In this document: piece after piece, positions 4,512-58,163 of the stretch | Numbering within the stretch: the stretch's first letter is position 1 | Layout: every line of letters begins with the position of its first letter | From: Planctomycetota bacterium | GTDB taxonomy: Bacteria > Planctomycetota > Phycisphaerae > FEN-1346 | Reading direction: 5' to 3' | Length of the DNA stretch: 64,000 nucleotides | Assembly (NCBI GenBank): GCA_030602705.1 | Contig: JAUVZF010000008.1 | Location: forward strand, 436-64,435 | Translations under genes and position numbers: made by a program | Notes under the pieces: model-generated | The model's database searches: none | Told to the model about the DNA's origin: nothing | The model's input: the letters and a program-made list of their open reading frames with translations, nothing else

Positions 4512-4586
4512 GACCGGGAGCTTCCGCTCCCGGCTCGAACGACAAGACGGCCAAAACGCACGGCCGGGCAAGACCGGCCGTGGCAC
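4512..4586. repeat. Two adjacent palindromic repeats (family I at ~4512-4539; family B at 4559-4586)
   Basis: GACCGGGAGCTTCCGCTCCCGGCTCGAA resembles the reverse complement of 10399-10427; CACGGCCGGGCAAGACCGGCCGTGGCAC recurs at 4908 and 31457. Confidence 0.7.
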
Positions 4587-4605
4587 ATCTCGTTAGCGAA
4601 CAGGC

Positions 4606-5718
4606 ATGAAGCACATCGTCATCATCCACGCGGGGGCCGTCGGCGACCTGGTGCAGGCGCTGCCGGCGATGGCGGCCGTGCGGGCGGCGTGGCCGGAGGC
4701 GACGGTCACGCTGGTCGGCCGGCCCGAGCGTGCGGCGCTCGCGGTCCTGGCGGGGGCGGCCGAAAGGATCGTGGACCTGGAGACGTGCGGCCTGTGGCGG
4801 CTGATGGGTGAGGCCGCAGACGCCACTGCCCTGCACGTCCTGGACGGTGCGGACCTGGTGGTCGATCTGCTGACGAAGGGAGCGCTGGCGGCAGGGTTCA
4901 AGAAAAGCACGGCCGGGCAAGCCTGCCCTGAGCCCGCCGAACGGGGCCGGCCGTGGCACACCTACACCTGTCACCCCGAGCGAAGCCGAGGGGTCTCGCC
5001 TTTCGACACCGCCAGAAGCACAGACAACGGCGAGATTCCTCCACTCGTCCCGACTGCGCCGGGACTCGGTCGGAATGACAGGCTGGTGGTCTCGGTCGAT
5101 CCTTTGCCGCCGGAGGGATGGCACCGGAGCGCGGCGGCGTGGATCACGGGCCAGGTGTGTGAGGCCCTGAGTCTGGATGCACCATGCGAGACGCCGTGTA
5201 TCCGCCTTCCACAAACGGCCGAAGACGCGGCGCGCACGCTGCTGGCGTCGCGCGGCGTGGGGGAGCGTTTCGTCGCCGTCCATCCCGGAAGCGGCTCGAC
5301 GACGAAGAACTGGCCGCTGGATCGCTTCGAGGCAGTTGCGCGCCGTGTGCGGCAAGAGACGTCGCGCGGCGTGGTGTGGCTCATCGGCCCGGCCGAACAG
5401 GAACGTGGGACGCTGCCGCACGGGGCGAGCGGCGACACGGTCATGGCAAACCTGGCGCTCGTGGACGTCGCGGGCCTCCTGGCACTGGCCGACGCGTATC
5501 TCGGAAACGATTCGGGTATCACGCAAATTGCGGCGGCCGTGCGGCGGCGCGACGGCCGTACCACGCCGACGGTGGCGCTGTTCGGTCCGACGGACCCGCG
5601 TGTGTGGGCTCCGTGCGGCGAGCACGTGCGGGTCGTCGCGGCGGCGGCGGACGGGAAGATGGAGAGTATCGGCGTCGAAGAAGTCGGCGAGGCGGTGGCG
5701 GCGATGCTGATACGATAA
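4606..5718 (+). CDS. Glycosyltransferase family 9 (heptosyltransferase-like) with an in-frame repeat-derived insertion
   Basis: GAVGDLV, VHPGSGSTTKNWP, YLGNDSGITQIAAA, ALFGPTDP. Confidence 0.9.
   Translation: MKHIVIIHAGAVGDLVQALPAMAAVRAAWPEATVTLVGRPERAALAVLAGAAERIVDLETCGLWRLMGEAADATALHVLDGADLVVDLLTKGALAAGFKKSTAGQACPEPAERGRPWHTYTCHPERSRGVSPFDTARSTDNGEIPPLVPTAPGLGRNDRLVVSVDPLPPEGWHRSAAAWITGQVCEALSLDAPCETPCIRLPQTAEDAARTLLASRGVGERFVAVHPGSGSTTKNWPLDRFEAVARRVRQETSRGVVWLIGPAEQERGTLPHGASGDTVMANLALVDVAGLLALADAYLGNDSGITQIAAAVRRRDGRTTPTVALFGPTDPRVWAPCGEHVRVVAAAADGKMESIGVEEVGEAVAAMLIR
4908..5080. repeat. Composite palindromic repeat (B + 25-nt element + E) inside the GT9 CDS
   Basis: 4969-5080 (TGTCACCCCGAGCG...GGAATGACA) matches the reverse complement of intergenic 20968-21073, sharing ACGGCGAGATTCCTC and CGGAATGACA. 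Confidence 0.85.
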
Positions 5719-10855: not shown

Positions 10856-11821
10856 ATGCCTCGCTTCGGCGCGCATCTCTCGATACAAGGCGGCGTGGAC
10901 AAGGCGGTGGAGCGTGCGCTCGCTATCCGGGCCGAGTGCCTCCAGATCTTCCTGAAATCGCCGGCGCAGTGGCGGTTCGGGCCGCTCTCCGATGAGACGG
11001 TCGGCCGGTTCCGCGCCGCGGCGCGCGAGGCAGACCTCACGCCGCTCGTCGGCCACGCGTCGTACCTCGTGAACCTGGCGAGCCCCGACCGGGCGCTGTA
11101 TGAACGGTCGCGCCGGTGTATCCTCGAAGAATGGGACCGGTCCGAGCGGCTCGGACTCGACGGCCTCGTCCTGCATCCCGGAGCCCACACGGGCAGCGGC
11201 GAGGCGGCCGGCCTCGCGCGCATCGCGCGGGCCCTCGACTGGCTCCATCGTCGGCGGCCGGACCACGCCTGCCGCATCCTGCTCGAAACCACCGCCGGCG
11301 CCGGAACAACCCTGTGCGGGCGGTTCGAGCATCTACAGTATCTCGTCGAAACCTGCGACTCTGAGTGTGCCACGGCCGGGCGGCATGGGCACGCGCCGCG
11401 GCGTGGCCATGTTCCGCCTGCGAGAGACGCGCGCAGCGGACAGGACTGTCCACCGCGCGGCGGCGCGAGAGAACGCCTGGGCATCTGCATCGACACGTGT
11501 CACCTGTGGGCCGCCGGATATGACGTGCGGACGCGCGGGGGCTTGGACGAAACGCTCGGGCGGCTGGATGAGACGGTCGGCCTGGCGCGCGTGGCCGTCG
11601 TCCACGCCAACGACGCAAAGGGCGAACGCGGGTCGCACCTCGACCGTCACGAACACATCGGCCGCGGGCGGATAGGGCGGGAGGGATTCCGGCGACTGGT
11701 CAATCATCCGGCGCTTCGCGACCTGCCGTTCATCCTCGAAACGCCCAAAGAAGGCCCCCGCGGCCGCAAGATGGACCCCGTGAACCTCCGCACCCTCCGT
11801 CGCCTTGCCGCCAACGCGTAA
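10856..11821 (+). CDS. nfo: Endonuclease IV (AP endonuclease family 2) with an in-frame insertion
   Basis: GAHLSI, HASYLVNLAS, LHPG, LLETTAG, CIDTCH, HANDAK, DRHEHIG, ILETP. Confidence 0.93.
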   Translation: MPRFGAHLSIQGGVDKAVERALAIRAECLQIFLKSPAQWRFGPLSDETVGRFRAAAREADLTPLVGHASYLVNLASPDRALYERSRRCILEEWDRSERLGLDGLVLHPGAHTGSGEAAGLARIARALDWLHRRRPDHACRILLETTAGAGTTLCGRFEHLQYLVETCDSECATAGRHGHAPRRGHVPPARDARSGQDCPPRGGARERLGICIDTCHLWAAGYDVRTRGGLDETLGRLDETVGLARVAVVHANDAKGERGSHLDRHEHIGRGRIGREGFRRLVNHPALRDLPFILETPKEGPRGRKMDPVNLRTLRRLAANA

Positions 11822-11907
11822 AAAAGGTTCCAGGAACCTTTTTCGCAGTTCGGCGTTTCTGGCCGCGTATCGGCCTTTTTCAGGAAAAGGTTCCTGGAAC
11901 CTTTTTT
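11820..11907. repeat. Family A doublet, downstream flank of the transposase
   Basis: Near-identical direct repeat of 12611-12696. Confidence 0.92.
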
Positions 11908-12574
11908 ACAATCGCGGTCGGCCACGGGGACGGAGGGTGTTCTCAAGGCCGAGGCGTGCTGCGGCGTGCAAGACCCAGTCAGCCGAACCATAGGGCCGTC
12001 CGCGTCTTGCGCACAACCTGAGGGCCGCCAGTTCGTCCTGGTTCAAAGGCTGATTGACGAAATCCAACCAACCATCAGGCCGCGGCACGGGCCATTCACT
12101 GAGCAGGGCTGTTGCCTCCACCGTGCCGCGTTCGCGACACCAGAGACTACCCCATCGCCAGTGCTCTGCTCTGGTCACCAGGCCGGCTCGCAGGGGGTTA
12201 CGTTCGACGTAGCGACACACCGTCAGGAAATACCGGTCGCTCTGAACCGGGAAAGACTTGAATCTGCCCTGATACAGATGGCCGCAACCGCGCATCCCTT
12301 GAAAGACATGCCAGCGAAGCGAATGCGTTCGCGTAAGCCAAGCGAGGTGCCGCGAAAGGTGCCCGTCCCCCTCGGGATGAAGCACCATGTGCCAGTGGTT
12401 TGGCATCAGGCAATAAGCAAGGACGCGCATCGGAACACGATCCTGGGCTTCCGCTATTACCTTCTCGAAGGCAGCGTAATCTCCGGGCCGTTTGAAAATC
12501 TGCGCACGCCCATTGGCCCGGTTCAGGACATGATACACGACTCCACCGACGGCAATACGCGGGGCTCTTGGCAT
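11906..12574 (-). mobile_element. Y1 HUH transposase (REP-associated tyrosine transposase / IS200-like)
   Basis: YHVLNRAN, AYCLMPNHWH (HUH), QGRFKS, RYVERNPLRAG (catalytic Tyr), WRWGS; lower GC than neighbours. Confidence 0.92.
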
Positions 12575-30963: not shown

Positions 30964-32490
30964 ATGACGTGGAAACGGCCACTGCTCGTCTACCCGTACT
31001 CGCCCGACAAGAAGAGCGAGCAACTGTACGGTGGACTGGCGATCATCAATCCGATCGGCCTCGAGATCGTCGCGACGGCCTTGAAGCCTGCTGTCGAGGA
31101 CCTCAGGCTCGTTGACATGCGGTTGGAGAAGCGGCCGCTCGAGGACCTGGTCCGCGAGTTCCGGCCCGACATGATCGCCGTGTCGCTCATGTGGGGCCGC
31201 GACGACTACTCCGACGCGCTGATTCACAACCTGCCGCGCGACACAACGCTCGTGGTCGGCGGCCTGTACGCCACACGCCACGCCGACGAGATGGTCGAGG
31301 CGCTGCCCGAGATGGACATCCTCGCCATCGGCTACGGCGACGAGACGCTGCCTCGCCTCATCGAGCACGGCTCGCCGGAAGGCGTCGCAGGATTCTGGTA
31401 TCGCGACCGCGCCACGGCGTACCCGCCCGACCGGCGCAAGCCGCGCGCATCCAAGGCACGGCCGGACGAGACCGGCCGTGGCACGCGCCTATCCGAAACC
31501 GCCGCACACCTCATCAAGAACCCACTCTACCCCGGCCGCACCATCGACCACCTGCACATCGACCGCTCGATACGCCGGTACGATTACCCGTGGCTGACGC
31601 TCAAGGGCGACAACGTCATCACGAGCGTGGGCTGCCCCATGGTCTGCGCCTTCTGCAAGTGGCGTGAGAACATCTTCGGCGAGGCCCAGCCCTGGATCGG
31701 ACGCGAGGCCGAGGACGTCGTCGCCGAACTCGAAGAGACCGACGCAGACATCGTCCACATCGTCGATGCCAACTTCGCCGCCGATGCCGAACGTGTCGAG
31801 AGAATCTGCGACCTTCTGATCCAGCGCGACGTGCGGCACCTGTACGCCTGTGAGATCCGCGTCAACCCGCTCTACAAGAACGCCCGTCTCGTCCGCAAGA
31901 TGGAGCAGGCGGGGTTCTTCATGTTTATGGTGGGCCTGGAATCCTACCAGCCGCACCTGCTTAAGGCCATGCGCAAGGGCTACACCGTCAAGATGGCACG
32001 AAAGGCCTTCGAGCACCTGCGCGAGACCAAGATCCTGACGCTCGGCAACTTCCTCATCGGCAACCCCGGCGAGACCGAGGACCAGATGCTCGGCATCGCC
32101 GACTACGCCGCCGAACTGGGCGTCGATTTCATCAGCCCCAACAAGATCTACGCCTACGAGGACACCGACTTCGAGCGGTGGGTCCTCTCTCAACCCGGCA
32201 TGAAAGTGGCCGGCCGCCGCCGATACGTCGTCAGCGACTCGTGCAGCCTCGAGGACCTCCGGCGCATCCAGGCCGGGATCATGCTGCGGTTCCTTCGCAA
32301 ACACCCGCCGACTATCCCGTACCGAAAGGCCCTGGCCCATCCGATGGTGCGGAAGATCGGCCGCGAGAAGGTCCGACGGGCAATGCTCCGCAGCCTCTGG
32401 AACCACGTGTCCGACGTGACCTTCCGCCGGCGGGCCGTCAAGAAACTGGTGAAATACTTCCGTCGCCCTTCCCGCGCGGCCGCCGTGTAA
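30964..32490 (+). CDS. B12-binding radical SAM protein
   Basis: PIGLE, VVGGLYAT, GCPMVCAFC (CxxxCxxC), DANF, GLES, GNPGET. Confidence 0.9.
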   Translation: MTWKRPLLVYPYSPDKKSEQLYGGLAIINPIGLEIVATALKPAVEDLRLVDMRLEKRPLEDLVREFRPDMIAVSLMWGRDDYSDALIHNLPRDTTLVVGGLYATRHADEMVEALPEMDILAIGYGDETLPRLIEHGSPEGVAGFWYRDRATAYPPDRRKPRASKARPDETGRGTRLSETAAHLIKNPLYPGRTIDHLHIDRSIRRYDYPWLTLKGDNVITSVGCPMVCAFCKWRENIFGEAQPWIGREAEDVVAELEETDADIVHIVDANFAADAERVERICDLLIQRDVRHLYACEIRVNPLYKNARLVRKMEQAGFFMFMVGLESYQPHLLKAMRKGYTVKMARKAFEHLRETKILTLGNFLIGNPGETEDQMLGIADYAAELGVDFISPNKIYAYEDTDFERWVLSQPGMKVAGRRRYVVSDSCSLEDLRRIQAGIMLRFLRKHPPTIPYRKALAHPMVRKIGREKVRRAMLRSLWNHVSDVTFRRRAVKKLVKYFRRPSRAAAV

Positions 32491-51904: not shown

Positions 51905-53626
51905 ATGCACAGGATCACCCTTACGCTGGCACTGGTAGCACTGATCGCAGCAGGCTGTACCGTGGGCACACACGGCCGGCAGGAGGTCCGGCGCCTGCCC
52001 GTCACCGAATACGTCAGCAAGATGAAGGCGGGCTGGATCGGCCAGATGGCCGGCGTCGGATGGGGCGCACCGACGGAGTTCAAGTTCAAGGGCAAGATCA
52101 TCCCGGAAGACCGCATGCCGAAGTGGAAGCCCGGCACGATCAACCAGTTTCGCCAGGACGACATCTACGTTGAGATGACGTTCCTGCGGACGCTGGAGGT
52201 GTACGGTCTGGACTGCTCCATCCGCCAGGCGGGCATCGACTTCGCCAAGTCCGGCTACCGATTGTGGCACGCCAACAACGCCGGGCGAACCAACCTGCGA
52301 AAAGGCATCGCACCCCCCGACTCGGGCCACCCCCAGTTCAACAAGCACGCCGACGACATCGATTACCAGATCGAGGCCGATTACGCCGGCCTCATCGCGC
52401 CCGGCATGCCGAACCTCGTCATCCGGTTGGGCGAAAAGTTCGGCCGCCTCATGAACTACGGCGACGGCGTCTATGCCGGCCAGTTCGTCGGCGGCATGTA
52501 CGCCGAGGCGTTCTTCGAGAACGACATGGTCAAGATCGTCGAGGCGGGCCTGAGGTGCATCCCCCCCCAAAGCCAGTACGCCGAGTGCATCCGCGACGTC
52601 CTGAAATGGTACCAGGCCAATCCCGATGACTGGCCCAAGACCTGGAACCTCATCGAGGAGAAGTACCACAAGAACCCGGCGTACACGCACGGCCTGTGCT
52701 CGAAGCCCGGCGGCGAGGGAGCCTTCAGCATCGACGCCAAACTCAACGGCGCCTACATCATCATGGGACTGCTCTACGGCAAGGGCGACCCCGACCAGAC
52801 CATCATCATCTCGACCCGTTGCGGCCAGGACTCCGACTGCAACCCCTCCAACGCCGGCGGCGTTCTCTTCACCACGATGGGGTTCGAGAAGATACCCGAC
52901 CGGTTCAAGTCGGCCCTGGACCCGGAGGGCAAGTTCAGCCACACGCCGTACAACTTCCCCGCGCTCATCGAGGTCTCGAAGAAACTCGTCCGCCAGGCCG
53001 TCGAGAAGGCCGGCGGCAAGATCGAGATCGACAACACGGGCCAAGAGGTCTTCGTCATCCCCGTCACCGAACCCAAGCCCACCAAACTGGAGCACGTCGG
53101 CAAGCCCGGCCCAATCGCCAACTCGAAGTTCACCGACGAGGAGATGGAGCGGATCAAGGCGCCTGCCCCTAGCGGCGGCAAGAGCGCGGCGAAGATCGAC
53201 ATCTCGAAGGCCGTGGCGACGGTCGCACCCGGATGGAAGGTCGCCAACTGCGGCGCCGACATGGACCCCGGCCTGCGGCGGGAATGGGGCGGCAGAAAGA
53301 ACGTCCTCGTCACACACCCCCTCAGCCGGACCACCGGATGCACACTCTCAAAGAAGGTCGAGGTCCCCGCCGGCAAAAAGACGCACCTGCGTCTGGTCGT
53401 CGCCCACGACCCGCGCGGCGACTGGACACTCATCGTCAAGGCCGGCGGGGTGCAACTCGCCAGGCAGAAGATCAGCAAGAGCACCGCCAAGGACGGCTGG
53501 ACCGACGTGACGGTAAACCTCTCGCCCATGGCCGGCAAGACCGTCAACCTCGAACTCCTGAACCAGGCCGACGGCTGGTTGTGGGAGGCCGGCTTCTGGG
53601 CCGAGATCCGGATCGCCAGCGAATAA
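51905..53626 (+). CDS. ADP-ribosylglycohydrolase-family lipoprotein with a C-terminal beta domain
   Basis: AAGC lipobox; GWIGQMAGVGWGAPTEF, QDDIY, DDIDYQIEAD, GQDSDCN. Confidence 0.82.
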   Translation: MHRITLTLALVALIAAGCTVGTHGRQEVRRLPVTEYVSKMKAGWIGQMAGVGWGAPTEFKFKGKIIPEDRMPKWKPGTINQFRQDDIYVEMTFLRTLEVYGLDCSIRQAGIDFAKSGYRLWHANNAGRTNLRKGIAPPDSGHPQFNKHADDIDYQIEADYAGLIAPGMPNLVIRLGEKFGRLMNYGDGVYAGQFVGGMYAEAFFENDMVKIVEAGLRCIPPQSQYAECIRDVLKWYQANPDDWPKTWNLIEEKYHKNPAYTHGLCSKPGGEGAFSIDAKLNGAYIIMGLLYGKGDPDQTIIISTRCGQDSDCNPSNAGGVLFTTMGFEKIPDRFKSALDPEGKFSHTPYNFPALIEVSKKLVRQAVEKAGGKIEIDNTGQEVFVIPVTEPKPTKLEHVGKPGPIANSKFTDEEMERIKAPAPSGGKSAAKIDISKAVATVAPGWKVANCGADMDPGLRREWGGRKNVLVTHPLSRTTGCTLSKKVEVPAGKKTHLRLVVAHDPRGDWTLIVKAGGVQLARQKISKSTAKDGWTDVTVNLSPMAGKTVNLELLNQADGWLWEAGFWAEIRIASE

Positions 53627-53654
53627 CGCTCCGAACACACCCAACCGGCAAGAG

Positions 53655-53770
53655 GATGGTGGTGATGCGACTCAGCCTGGCCGTGGTGCTCGCACTCCTT
53701 GCGGCCGCCGCTTCCGTGTCGTGGTGCGCGGAAGAAGCAGGCGGGGCCAAGTCAAAACCCCGGGGCGGCC
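53655..53770 (+). pseudogene. Orphan signal-peptide gene start
   Basis: AGAGG then MVVMRLSLAVVLALLAAAASVSWCAEE; composition changes abruptly after ~53770. Confidence 0.4.
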
Positions 53771-53958
53771 CGCTTGACACGCGAGGCCCTCCGCTTGAAT
53801 GTTCTGGAAAACATGCTTGCTACAACAGCAGCGAGGGCGGTATGTTGCACCCTAAAATTAAGTTTGGATGTTCCGCGCTGGGCACGCCCGCCCGGCTTGC
53901 AGAGCATCCGAGGCCCTAAAAGGGCCTGAACGGTTACCTTTTATGAAAGGACGATCCG

Positions 53959-55227
53959 GTGCGCCGAATCACAAAGATGCTTCTTGCGGTGACCTTCTTC
54001 GTGTTACTCCTGGGGTCCACGGCCGAGGCCGACCCAAAGGTCCGGCGCCTGCCCGTCACCGAATACGTCAGCAAGATGAAGGCGGGCTGGATCGGCCAGA
54101 TGGCCGGCGTCGGATGGGGCGGCCCCACGGAGTGGAAGAAGCGCGGGGAGATCTTCCCCGAGAACCAGGTGCCCGTGTGGAAGCCCGGCTTGATCAACCA
54201 GTTCGAGCAGGACGACATCTACGTGGAGATGACGTTCCTGCGGACGCTTGAGGTTCACGGCCTGGACGTTTCGATCCGCCAGGCGGGAATCGACTTCGCC
54301 AATTCCGGGTACCGCCTCCACTGTGCGAACAACGCCGGCCGGATGAACCTCCGCCGCGGCATCGCGCCGCCCGATTCGAGCCACCCCCGGTTCAACAAGC
54401 ACGCCGACGACATCGATTACCAGATCGAGGCCGACTATTCGGGTCTCATCGCGCCGGGCATGCCCAACCTCCCGATCGAACTGGGCGAGAAGTTCGGGCG
54501 GCTGATGAACTACGGCGACGCCATGTACGCCGGGCAGTTCGTCGGCGGCATGTACGCCGAGGCGTTCTTCACCGACGACATGGTGAAGATCGTCGAGGCG
54601 GGCCTGCGGTGCATCCCCAAAGAAAGCCAATACGCCGAGATGGTCCGCGACATGCTTCGCTGGCAGGAGAAGAACCCCGACGACTGGCAAAAGACCTGGC
54701 AGTGGATCGAGGAGAAGTATCACAAGAACCCGAAGTACCAGCACGGCCTGTGCCACCTTACGAAGCCCGGCGGCAAGGGCGGCCAAAAGAACATCGACGC
54801 CAAACTCAACGGGGCCTACATCCTCATGGGCCTCTTCTACGGCAAGGGCGACCCCGACCGGACCATCGTCATCTCGATCCGTTGCGGGCAGGACTCCGAC
54901 TGCAACCCGTCCAACGCCGGCGGCATTCTATTCACCACCATGGGGTTCGAGAAGATACCCGACCGATTCAAGTCGGCCCTGGACCCGAAGGGCAAGTTCA
55001 GCCACTCGCCGTACGACTTTCCCACGTTGATCGAGGTCTCGAAGAAACTCGTCCGCCAGGCCGTTGAGAAGATGGGCGGCAAGGTCGAGACGGCGGGCGG
55101 CCGAGAGGTCTTCGTCATCCCGGTCAAGAAGCCGAAGCCAAGCGCCGTCATGAAGAGCTACGACCCCGGTCCGATCGCGAACTCGAAGTTCACTGACGAG
55201 GAGATGGAGCGGATCAAGGCACCTTGA
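53959..55227 (+). CDS. ADP-ribosylglycohydrolase-family paralog 2, C-terminally truncated
   Basis: Highly similar to 51905-53626 up to EEMERIKAP; the stop TGA comes from foreign sequence. Confidence 0.82.
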   Translation: MRRITKMLLAVTFFVLLLGSTAEADPKVRRLPVTEYVSKMKAGWIGQMAGVGWGGPTEWKKRGEIFPENQVPVWKPGLINQFEQDDIYVEMTFLRTLEVHGLDVSIRQAGIDFANSGYRLHCANNAGRMNLRRGIAPPDSSHPRFNKHADDIDYQIEADYSGLIAPGMPNLPIELGEKFGRLMNYGDAMYAGQFVGGMYAEAFFTDDMVKIVEAGLRCIPKESQYAEMVRDMLRWQEKNPDDWQKTWQWIEEKYHKNPKYQHGLCHLTKPGGKGGQKNIDAKLNGAYILMGLFYGKGDPDRTIVISIRCGQDSDCNPSNAGGILFTTMGFEKIPDRFKSALDPKGKFSHSPYDFPTLIEVSKKLVRQAVEKMGGKVETAGGREVFVIPVKKPKPSAVMKSYDPGPIANSKFTDEEMERIKAP

Positions 55228-55346
55228 CCTTGTACCCATTGACTGAACAGTTGAAGCGGTGCGTTAAGGTGTAACCGTCTCCAACAGGCCCAGCGTTGCT
55301 GCTGCGGAGGGAGCCCGAAGGGCGACCGGAGCGGCAGCAACGCTCA
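55225..55346 (+). mobile_element. Possible IS3-like end remnant
   Basis: Starts TGACCTTGTACCCATTGACTGAACAG; long hairpin around GAGGGAGCCCGAAGGGCGACCGGAG; replaces ~160 bp present in paralog 1. Confidence 0.4.
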
Positions 55347-55652
55347 CGGCGCCGGACCACCGGATGCACCCTTTCCAGGAAGGCCGAGGTCCCCGCCGGC
55401 AAAAAGACGCACCTGCGTCTGGTCGTCGCCCACGACCCGCGCGGCGACTGGACACTCATCGTCAAGGCCGGCGGGGTGCAACTCGCCAGGCAGAAGATCA
55501 GCAAAAGCACCGCCAAGGACGGCTGGCTCAACGTGGACGTCGACCTCTCGTCCCTGGCCGGCAAGACGGTAAACCTCGAACTCATCAACCAGGCGGACGC
55601 TTGGTCGTGGGAGGCCGGCTACTGGGCTGAAATCGCCGTCGAGAGCAAGTAG
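55347..55652 (+). pseudogene. Detached C-terminal domain of ARH paralog 2
   Basis: RTTGCTLSRKAEVPAGKKTHLRL..AGYWAEI matches 53325-53626. Confidence 0.8.
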
Positions 55653-55706
55653 CCGCCCGCTGGACAGCACACAAACGGCCTGTCACAAAGCGGAAAGGAG
55701 AACACC

Positions 55707-58163
55707 GTGCGATACGTATGCGTCCTGCTGGCTCTAAGCCTCGGAGCGGCAGCCGTCTGCTCAGCCGCCCTTGCCGGGGCATCCGCGCTCGCCGGCGAGG
55801 CCCCCGCCGAGGCGGGGTTCAAGGAAGGGCCGATCATGCTGGCCCCGTCCGACCCCGCCCGCCGGCCCGTCTGGCGCGGGTGGCTCGCCGAGTGGCGCGA
55901 GCGCACGCGCCACGGACTCGCCTATGACGATTCGCTTTACGAGAAGGAGGCCTTCCGCTGGGCCGCCTCCTGCTATACCTGCTGCTTCGCCATGATGGGC
56001 GACCTCGAGTTCTACGACCCGGAGGCCGGCCGGTACACGCCGGAGGAGTTCGTGGCGTCGGGCGAGCGCGGCTTCGGCGGCTACGACGCCCTCGTCCTCT
56101 GGCACGCCTACCCGCGCATCGGCTTCGACGACCGGAACCAGTTCGACTTCTACCGCGACATGCCGGGCGGCCTGGACGGGCTTCGCGACCTCGGCCGGCG
56201 CCTCCGGGAGCGCGGCGTCCGCGTCTTCATCGACTACAACCCGTGGGATACCGGCACCCGCCGCGAGGGCACGAGCGACGTCGACGCCCTGGCCGCCTTG
56301 GTCGCCGCCATCGAGGCCGACGGCATCTTCCTCGACACGCTGCACCACGGCAGCAAGGACCTGAGGCCGCGGCTCGACGCCGTCCGCCGGGGCGTGGTCC
56401 TGGAGTCGGAACTCGACATGCCCGTCCGCGAGATCGCACGCCATCACATGTCGTGGGCCCAGGGGTTCAAGGACAGCCCCGTCCCGGGCGTCCTGCGGAA
56501 CAAGTGGTTCGAACGCCGCCACATGCAGCACCAGACTCGCCGATGGCAGCACGACCACACGGGCGAACTCCACTCGGCCTGGATGAACGGCAGCGGCATG
56601 ATGGTGTGGGAGAACGTCTTCGGCACGTGGGTCGGCTGGAACGGGCGCGACCGCTCCATCCTCCGAACGATGGTGCCCATCCAGCGGCACTACGCCCGCG
56701 TCTTCGTCGGCGAGAAGTGGACGCCCCTCGTCCCCACCGAGGCTGAGGACGTCTACGCCAGCCGGTGGGAGCGCGAGGCCTTGAGGCTCTGGACCCTCGT
56801 CAACCGCGCCGGCGAGCCGCGCGACGGCACCCTGCTGGAGGTGAGGCACGAGCCGGGCACGCGCTACGCCGACCTGGTCCGCGGCGTGGAGATTGAGCCG
56901 GAGTCGCGGGACGGCCGCGCGAGGCTCGCGGGTACCATCGCTCCGCGCGGCATCGGCTGCTTCCTAGCCGCGCGGCCGGATGCGCTTGATGAGGACTTCG
57001 CCGGCTTCCTCCGCGAGCAGCGCCGGACCCACGCCCGCCGCCACTTCTCCACCACGTTCCCGAAGCGGCAGGAGAGGCTCCGGCCCGTCCGGCCCACCAA
57101 GCCCTACGCCCCTGCCGACCTGCCTGAGGGCATGATCGCCATCTCCGGCGGCGAGGTCCGCATCGAGGTCACGTTCCGCAAGCGCGAGTGCGGCACGTAC
57201 GCGGCGCCGCTCAAGCGCACGGTCACCCTCTCGCCGTACGCCATCGACGCGGTGCCCGTCACGAACCGGCAGTTCGCCGCCTTCCTGGAGGCCGCCGGCT
57301 ACGAGCCGCGGCACAAGAAGAACTTCCTGAAGCACTGGGTCGACGGCCGGCCGCCGCCCGGCCGGGAGGACCACCCCGTGGTTTACGTCGACTTGGCCGA
57401 CGCCCGGGCCTACGCACGCTGGGCCGGCAAGCGGCTGCCCACTGAGGACGAGTGGCAGCACGCCGCCCAGGGGCCTGAGCGATGGAAGTATCCGTGGGGC
57501 GACGAACTCGACCCCCAGCGGTGCAACCACGGCCAGACGGACGGGACTACGCCGGTCCGGGCCTTCCCGAAGGGCCGCTCTCCATTCGGCTGCTGGGATA
57601 TGTGCGGCAACACGTGGGAATGGACCGAGAGCGAACGCTCCGACGGCCGGACGCGGTTCTGCATTCTCAGGGGCGGCTCTTGGTACAAGGCGAAAGGCTC
57701 GCGCTGGTACGCCGACGGCGGCCCGCAGCCGACACACCGCGCGGCCAAGTTCCTGATGATGTGGCCGGGCCTGGACCGCTGCGCGACGATCGGCTTCCGC
57801 TGCACCTTGGATATGGCGGCGGCGCCGGATCACCGGATGCACCCTTTCCAGAAAGGCCGAGGTCCCCGCCGGCAAAAAGACGCACCTGCACCTGGTCGTC
57901 GCCCACGACCCGCGCGGCGACTGGACGCTCATCGTCAAGGCCGACGGGGTGCAGCTCGCAGTCAGTCAGTGGGCAGCGTGGGGCGATTCAAATCGCTATC
58001 AGTCTTACGAATTTCGCGACTCTCGCGGCAGGTCCTTGACAGTCTCTACGGCCTCACGGTAAGATCATGGGCAGCGTGGGGCGATTCAAATCGCTATCAG
58101 TTACCCCGGGCTTCGCAGTGGAACGCCTTCGGCGTAGCGCACGGCGTGGTAGGTCGAAAATGA
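55707..58163 (+). CDS. Secreted protein with a TIM-barrel-like N-terminus and an FGE-sulfatase (SUMF1) C-terminal domain; tail after ~57820 is repeat-derived
   Basis: HPVVYV, KRLPTEDEWQHAA, YPWG, DMCGNTWEWT, RGGS, IGFRC. Confidence 0.82.
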   Translation: MRYVCVLLALSLGAAAVCSAALAGASALAGEAPAEAGFKEGPIMLAPSDPARRPVWRGWLAEWRERTRHGLAYDDSLYEKEAFRWAASCYTCCFAMMGDLEFYDPEAGRYTPEEFVASGERGFGGYDALVLWHAYPRIGFDDRNQFDFYRDMPGGLDGLRDLGRRLRERGVRVFIDYNPWDTGTRREGTSDVDALAALVAAIEADGIFLDTLHHGSKDLRPRLDAVRRGVVLESELDMPVREIARHHMSWAQGFKDSPVPGVLRNKWFERRHMQHQTRRWQHDHTGELHSAWMNGSGMMVWENVFGTWVGWNGRDRSILRTMVPIQRHYARVFVGEKWTPLVPTEAEDVYASRWEREALRLWTLVNRAGEPRDGTLLEVRHEPGTRYADLVRGVEIEPESRDGRARLAGTIAPRGIGCFLAARPDALDEDFAGFLREQRRTHARRHFSTTFPKRQERLRPVRPTKPYAPADLPEGMIAISGGEVRIEVTFRKRECGTYAAPLKRTVTLSPYAIDAVPVTNRQFAAFLEAAGYEPRHKKNFLKHWVDGRPPPGREDHPVVYVDLADARAYARWAGKRLPTEDEWQHAAQGPERWKYPWGDELDPQRCNHGQTDGTTPVRAFPKGRSPFGCWDMCGNTWEWTESERSDGRTRFCILRGGSWYKAKGSRWYADGGPQPTHRAAKFLMMWPGLDRCATIGFRCTLDMAAAPDHRMHPFQKGRGPRRQKDAPAPGRRPRPARRLDAHRQGRRGAARSQSVGSVGRFKSLSVLRISRLSRQVLDSLYGLTVRSWAAWGDSNRYQLPRASQWNAFGVAHGVVGRK
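57820..57959 (+). repeat. Third, partial copy of the ARH C-terminal segment
   Basis: ~140-bp near-identical direct repeat of 55347-55486. Confidence 0.88.
57970..58101 (+). repeat. 34-bp direct repeat x2 around a promoter-like spacer
   Basis: TGGGCAGCGTGGGGCGATTCAAATCGCTATCAGT at 57970 and 58068. Confidence 0.9.

Follow-up and report, generated by a model that had tools for sequence, protein, structure and literature searches.

Within the window, by which we mean the whole 64,000-nucleotide stretch of Planctomycetota DNA analyzed here, three dispersed families of palindromic repeats are piled into a permissive surface loop of a GT9 (heptosyltransferase-like) gene, where they are probably tolerated as a predicted disordered loop with no function of its own. 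The gene occupies positions 4606-5718 on the + strand, 3' of mnmA, and encodes 370 aa in a frame that stays open through the insert. The original prediction had described about 57 codons of stacked palindromic repeats inserted in frame, built from three repeats that also occur outside genes; positions 4908-5080 do translate into the peptide quoted there, and outside copies of all three repeats, here called B, N and E, were located at 4558-4588, around 23870 and around 20968, respectively, the copy at about 23870 being itself nested in another palindrome. The arrangement can be refined in two respects: N sits inside B, not adjacent to it, and E is an inverted pair of arms. The window lies within contig C34 of its own assembly (3.88 Mb, 93% complete), which is designated G000 below; G001 and G004 designate related genomes, L-numbers DNA loci, and P-numbers homologous proteins.

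Comparison of the region with the assembly by blastn resolved four repeat blocks. Repeat B (4907-4961, + strand) is a REP-like hairpin with a 9-bp stem and 53 genome matches; it is split by N but folds as a perfect hairpin once N is removed, and it is probably the oldest layer in the window's allele. Repeat N (4922-4945, + strand) is a 24-nt element in the loop of B that adds eight codons and has 18 matches in the genome. A 7-nt link separates the end of B at 4961 from the start of repeat E at 4969. E itself (4969-5080, + strand) is a 112-nt inverted pair of hairpins of the CGTC/Ssn type, with TGTC tags facing outward and a 27-nt spacer: the left arm (4969-5000, + strand) has the stem ACCCC/GGGGT, and the right arm (5028-5080, - strand) has the stem ATTCC/GGAAT in its minus-strand fold, with an inner 7-bp hairpin. 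The extragenic copy of B at 4558-4588 (+ strand) lies just 5' of the GT9 start, where G001 and G004 have other repeats instead. Profile searches of the whole assembly, which recovered the matches to B and N given above, also returned 95 and 147 matches for the two E arms, with none for any profile in the reversed genome, and 69 full E pairs of 102-166 nt. The E-arm stems covary across the genome (40 with ATTCC/GGAAT, 17 with ACCCC/GGGGT). The insert has a coding score of -0.27 against 0.33 for the core of the gene, and a GC3 of 0.71 against 0.84.

The insert is not an assembly error, because contigs from two public runs cross it without a gap (X1 record 2, which may come from the same sample as the window, and X3 record 18, which shows 43 differences) and because the homologous protein P0001, at 94% identity, carries the same three layers B, N and E; an assembly artefact was ruled out on these grounds. 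The full insert was found again in two independent assemblies, whereas the exact 24 nt of N are absent from run contig X8 record 11. The best-matching public runs are sediment metagenomes, and the source names of the homologs are Phycisphaerae/Planctomycetota.

Assignment of the protein to GT9 is supported by a match to PF01075 (E 3.5e-20, 72.8 bits against a cut-off of 22), while it falls below every NCBIfam equivalog cut-off for heptosyltransferases I, II, and III, the best score being 69.5 against 185.3. A search with the predicted model in Foldseek gave GT9 chains as its nine best matches, including GT9 3tov, WaaF 1psw, and WaaC 2h1h. As stated in the original prediction, the GT9 motifs are preserved: D14, KNW, NDSG and the invariant GT9 residues are intact, D14 aligning with the WaaC aspartate that we take to be the catalytic base. 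The AlphaFold2 model, calculated from an alignment of 49 sequences, has a mean pLDDT of 83.9, with residues 105-156 below 50, and places the insert between the helix 93-104 and the strand 160-163; the surface loop that had been anticipated is thus predicted, and predicted to be disordered. Helix-to-strand connections of Rossmann domains normally point away from the catalytic cleft.

The gap that had likewise been expected on alignment with homologs was found at the insert: 76 aa separate the flanking motifs in the window's protein compared with a median of 19 aa, calculated from the 101 of 120 homologs with parsable motifs, so that the loop is longer than the homolog median by about 57 codons. 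The lengths in the 15 closest homologs are 76, 68, 41 (twice), 39 (three times), 30 (seven times), and 20. All 15 carry a repeat-derived loop of some kind, with B in 11, E-derived sequence in six, N in one, and a different nested repeat in two; the insert peptides tested occur in none of the other 105 homologs, and the loop is short in other genera. The states observed are B alone, B with another repeat, B with E, half of E, and a remnant, always in frame, and close relatives differ among themselves in at least six loop states, whose peptides are unrelated. A tree calculated from 23 proteins with the loop left out (P0011, P0013, and P0021 were omitted, their motif being unparsed) is partly unresolved and contains three well-supported sister pairs with different loop states.

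A comparison of G000 with G004 points to exchange between relatives: E differs at 1 of 114 nt and the core at 87 of 894 (p 3e-4), and the closest paralogous full E pair in either genome has only about 80% identity. This reads as a probable recent homologous swap of the loop region between relatives, in a GT9 gene that looks mosaic overall. In a second subclade both the stem variant of the right arm of E and its 3' flank are different, and E-type repeats may therefore have entered the GT9 loop twice. The B variant of G004 was searched for elsewhere in its genome, and its exact pattern occurs only at the GT9 locus, which led us to reject the idea that it was drawn from that genome's own repeat pool. 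The near identity of E in two genomes that are about 10% divergent in the core is also what co-option would look like, that is, a loop that alters acceptor range, partner binding, or localization, and a long allele that spreads by selection; the presence of E-bearing contigs in several public runs and the repeat-derived loop in 15/15 closest homologs could be read in the same way. We consider co-option decidedly unlikely: the low divergence of E includes zero synonymous changes, indicating recent shared ancestry rather than protein-level selection, and the nearest homolog has changed residues within the insert, the coexisting loop states are unrelated in peptide, and the loop is predicted to be disordered.

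The comparison with P0001 also bears on the insert as a peptide: 3 of its 59 residues have changed, against 17 of 281 elsewhere in the protein. The insert peptide changes at about the rate of the core and shows no sign of conservation as a peptide. Relaxed selection on the gene had been named at the outset as a point to check, and no relaxation specific to the long-insert alleles was found: nonsynonymous differences to five outgroup alleles number 76-88 for L001 and 84-93 for L002, both with long inserts, and 80-98 for L003 and 73-90 for L025, short-loop alleles of similar coverage. Ratios of dN/dS, obtained by a simple counting method on GC-rich sequence, are 0.40, 0.57, and 0.69 for the core in the closest pairs and 0.26-0.36 in more distant pairs, compared with 0.13, 0.17, 0.21, and 0.45 for mnmA in pairs with G000, and the higher values for the core show the GT9 gene to be just moderately constrained.

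These elevated ratios, together with the tendency of this GT9 subfamily to gather insertions at several sites and with two RNA runs that yielded no contigs, are points for a gene in decay, relaxed or silent, in which repeats pile up as the protein no longer matters. Such decay is very unlikely, given that every length change seen is in frame, the invariant residues are retained, long-insert alleles evolve no faster than short ones, and mnmA still precedes the gene in same-genus loci. The 60 DNA loci examined showed no frameshift: 40 have both motifs in one open reading frame and 20 were aligned in a single frame, three of these with one stop inside the match. Palindromic inserts of other repeat families are present at about six further sites in the GT9 proteins of relatives; in-frame inserts of such unrelated families, mostly right after the AAVR motif, were seen at L007, L015, L016, L026, L037, L055, and other loci.

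Across the genome, copies within genes are exceptional. Genes were called with a custom program (2,894 genes, 80% coding), which misses some of them and treats a gene broken by a repeat as intergenic. By this count, only 3 of 175 clusters of B, N, and E lie deep in genes, compared with 130 in intergenic regions and 39 at contig ends, although gene interiors make up 64% of the assembly. For the abundant families, counted with 32 overlapping seeds of which 29 had matches, the 2,122 matches divide into 1,789 between genes, 317 at the ends of contigs, 11 close to gene ends, and 5 deep in genes. A k-mer census of 1,417 short repeated elements placed 58 of them deep in genes, seven of these being ordinary protein repeats. 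Because in-gene copies are so rare (3/175), the insert is best seen as probable debris that a permissive loop tolerates, and not as protein innovation. The claim that repeats are creating new protein sequence in this lineage therefore stands in a restricted form: repeat peptides do occur in frame in other genes and at other GT9 loops, as a recurring yet small minority, but an adaptive or lasting sense is not supported, given the turnover of the loop among relatives, the core-like rate of change of the insert, and the near exclusion of the abundant families from gene interiors. Loose regular-expression counts of B, E, and the GTGGCACC motif in genes were dropped, as reversed controls were equally high.

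One low-copy family, whose core is CCATACGG..CCGTAC, stands apart, with 35 of its 108 matches deep in predicted genes (reversed control, 3), and it may be coding-tolerant and RPE-like; examples are L111, in the linker of an alanine racemase, L115, and L120. Of 34 candidate genes selected by hand, 32 match Pfam families, and the repeat lies inside or between domains in 17 or 18 of them, including, as judged from the G000 sequence alone, alanine racemase, SMC hinge, MnmE, SelB, TrpE, and endonuclease IV genes. In the window, an in-frame stretch starting with a B-like repeat tail interrupts the Pfam match of the endonuclease IV-like gene (10895-11821, + strand) at residue 157, and a gene at 30964-32490 (+ strand) has one copy of B near 31455, in frame between its B12-binding and radical SAM domains. 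Copies of N lie in frame, outside any B, in the SMC hinge (L126) and in other genes (L127, L137).

Repeats in this genome land preferentially in and beside other repeats. Deleting exactly 24 nt restores a known repeat at 7 of 18 copies of N compared with 2 of 300 control sites, and E clusters abut another repeat in 64 of 80 cases against 62 of 300 controls. Next to an Ssn-like gene of Saccharibacteria, in the upstream flank of L256, the loop of an E-type arm contains an N-like hairpin, indicating that N-like nesting is not confined to the window's lineage. Given this preference, the first insertion in the GT9 loop was likely the landing site for later ones. B would have come first, into the helix-to-strand loop, the E pair would then have landed directly behind it, and N would have dropped into the loop of B, an order deduced from few alleles and a partly unresolved tree; alternatively, B with E may be the ancestral state, followed by repeated losses. 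That a ready-made B+N copy from elsewhere in the genome took the place of B is disfavored, because the base after N is G, as in the resident ortholog allele, and is A in the other B+N copies.

The precedent of Rickettsia palindromic elements, brought forward in the original prediction, proved closer than claimed there: in the survey of Di Nocera 2013 (PMC3733652), CGTC repeats of R. conorii encode similar CH..S.G and ..RGND peptides, which look like the ends of the E peptide. Intragenic REPs are reported there as singles, as dimers, and as clusters that encode 43-82 aa, and some REPs lie inside other palindromes. In-frame clustered and nested palindromes are thus already published (PMC3733652; Rickettsia RPEs), and, the class of event being known, the finding alone changes little. 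What differs from the cases set out there is the nesting of three unrelated families in a single loop, together with the allelic series across relatives. A literature search, with most subscription journals outside its scope, found no report of such inserts in Phycisphaerae. Like the RPEs (reviewed in PMC10969869 and PMC3184786), the repeats reported here are palindromes fused in frame in unrelated housekeeping genes; unlike RPE-1, which the former source describes as a single unit of about 150 bp whose peptide is conserved and whose copies lie in genes in nearly half of cases, they are mixed units of 24-112 nt and nearly all extragenic. A mostly intergenic distribution with an in-frame minority is shared by the repeats here and the CGTC/GTAG REPs, including Rickettsia RPE-4/RPE-6, of PMC3733652.

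E resembles the CGTC REPs of that survey, for which TGTC is given as a variant tag, in having a TGTC tag on both arms, a tags-outward heterodimer, and a spacer of 27 nt, within the range of 20-100. It differs from CGTC families 1-4, described with an 8-9-bp stem starting AT, a loop of 4-5 nt, and a CCA tail, in its 5-bp outer stem followed by a fixed mismatch, a left arm starting AC, and a CTC tail. E is accordingly placed, on its sequence features, in the architecture of the CGTC superfamily and outside the four described families; the survey gives no CGTC family for Planctomycetes and presents CGTC REPs as lacking a dedicated transposase. B, in turn, has a short perfect hairpin, an unpaired tag, and about 50 dispersed copies, as is the case for REP/BIME/REPIN elements. 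Its 9-bp stem is preceded by GTGC on the minus strand. GTAG REPs have a GTAG-like tag next to a 6-13-bp stem; in the passages of PMC3733652 consulted, GTGG appears as a variant of that tag and GTGC does not. In contrast to REP/RAYT systems (for RAYT biochemistry, see PMC8266576), B has no flanked cognate RAYT among 53 Y1 loci.

None of these 53 Y1/RAYT loci, in fragmented assemblies, has B, N, or E at both of its flanks, and a B match within 500 nt was found at two of them, each one-sided. G000 has eight Y1-transposase matches, several of them flanked by repeats of their own and one by a GTGG-tagged family resembling the end of B; the search for an enzyme cognate to B or N yielded none. For E a candidate emerged among small stand-alone GIY-YIG genes, 30 of 35 matches being covered by the flank test: E arms lie on both sides of seven of the eight members of one clade and of none of 22 other GIY-YIG loci. 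The arm-nuclease-arm element of G004 measures 467 nt, and its two arms agree in type and order with those of the 112-nt GT9 pair, which is probably a gene-less form of such an element. Further GIY-YIG relatives have a GTCA-tagged hairpin within 400 nt in 78 of 80 cases and on both sides in 62 of 80 (controls, 2 and 0). The G004 protein, encoded at L198, matches an NTS-flanked 94-aa open reading frame of Neisseria (tblastn, E 3e-22, 50.5% identity), with residues Y6, Y17, and E64 of the latter mapping to Y5, Y17, and E64; from its length, these residues, and its NTS flanks, the Neisseria frame is probably SsnA, and the product of L198 is a putative single-domain nuclease of about 95 aa in the Ssn family.

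The Ssn enzymes are described by Chenal et al. 2025 (PMC11893778) as GIY-YIG single-strand nucleases that cut their own repeats, SRM/NTS, with mobilization put forward there as a hypothesis. E-type repeats resemble SRM/NTS in having a GTCA-tagged hairpin followed by C around a GIY-YIG gene of 94-98 aa in which three catalytic residues are kept. The published SRM pattern has no exact match in E (the left arm fits with one position relaxed, the right arm does not), matches none of the 80 flanks of GIY-YIG relatives, and occurs in its strict form in G000 at chance level (37 vs 30), as do the counts for Phycisphaera mikurensis in the published table; it misses a large subgroup. Because the same arms bracket small GIY-YIG genes, and given the Neisseria homology and the GTCA-hairpin flanks, E is classed here as an Ssn-type repeat pair, though outside the published pattern. 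An E-flanked nuclease gene was not found in G000, which is 93% complete and has 35 of 324 contig ends within E.

The NTS of Neisseria are likewise rare inside genes (2%), and SsnA and its repeats together influence how genes close by are transformed (PMC11893778). This influence, together with the mosaic appearance of the G000/G004 gene, raises the question of whether the hairpins act in the GT9 gene at the level of DNA or RNA, through mRNA stability, pauses in translation of the N-terminal domain, or nuclease sites tuning recombination of a surface-polysaccharide gene, the peptide being a by-product. The insert region does fold strongly as RNA (-90.7 kcal/mol, z -3.4 against shuffles) and its arm stems covary, but both are expected for any copy of these families, E is absent from the majority of alleles (9/15), and no cognate nuclease was found in G000; a role of this kind is highly improbable. 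An Rfam search for known structured RNA gave one chance-level match, outside the insert.

Tolerated accumulation, the preferred reading, can be cast as a tentative mechanism. E was likely spread, or at least recognized, by a small Ssn-family GIY-YIG single-strand nuclease, and B resembles RAYT-associated REPs; selection would purge events that break the frame or a domain and let pass changes by multiples of three at exposed loops, and deletion and homologous recombination between relatives would then reshuffle the loop alleles. A stronger version, possible but with the odds somewhat against it, is that the loop is a self-feeding landing pad whose cassettes are exchanged between species, yielding a fast-turnover library of loops of 20-76 residues. 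If so, the genus would hold a natural time series of the birth of protein sequence de novo, in which the first in-frame hairpin attracts other families, one of them served by a putative Ssn-type nuclease subgroup. A single loop with at least six alleles already displays gain, nesting, loss, and swapping of repeat-derived peptide, and can be assayed allele by allele. The arm-nuclease-arm element and its candidate gene-less derivative offer a concrete case for whether Ssn nucleases spread CGTC-type repeats, a matter left open in both PMC3733652, where no dedicated transposase is given, and PMC11893778, where mobility is only hypothesized.

Three further observations concern mobile or duplicated DNA. 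A Y1 (RAYT-like) transposase gene in the window (11906-12574, - strand) lies between paired AAAAAGGTTCCAGGAACCTTTT palindromes, a family with about 287 genome matches. At 51984-57959 the window contains long blocks paralogous to one another, two or three in number, which share 84-95% identity and are spaced by about 2 kb. Of the remaining small stand-alone GIY-YIG genes of this family, most adjoin a tRNA gene (L192, L197, and L201 in G000, L193, L199, L200, and other loci), several of them sitting between the tRNA and its partial duplicate, and these loci look like minimal tRNA-targeting elements.
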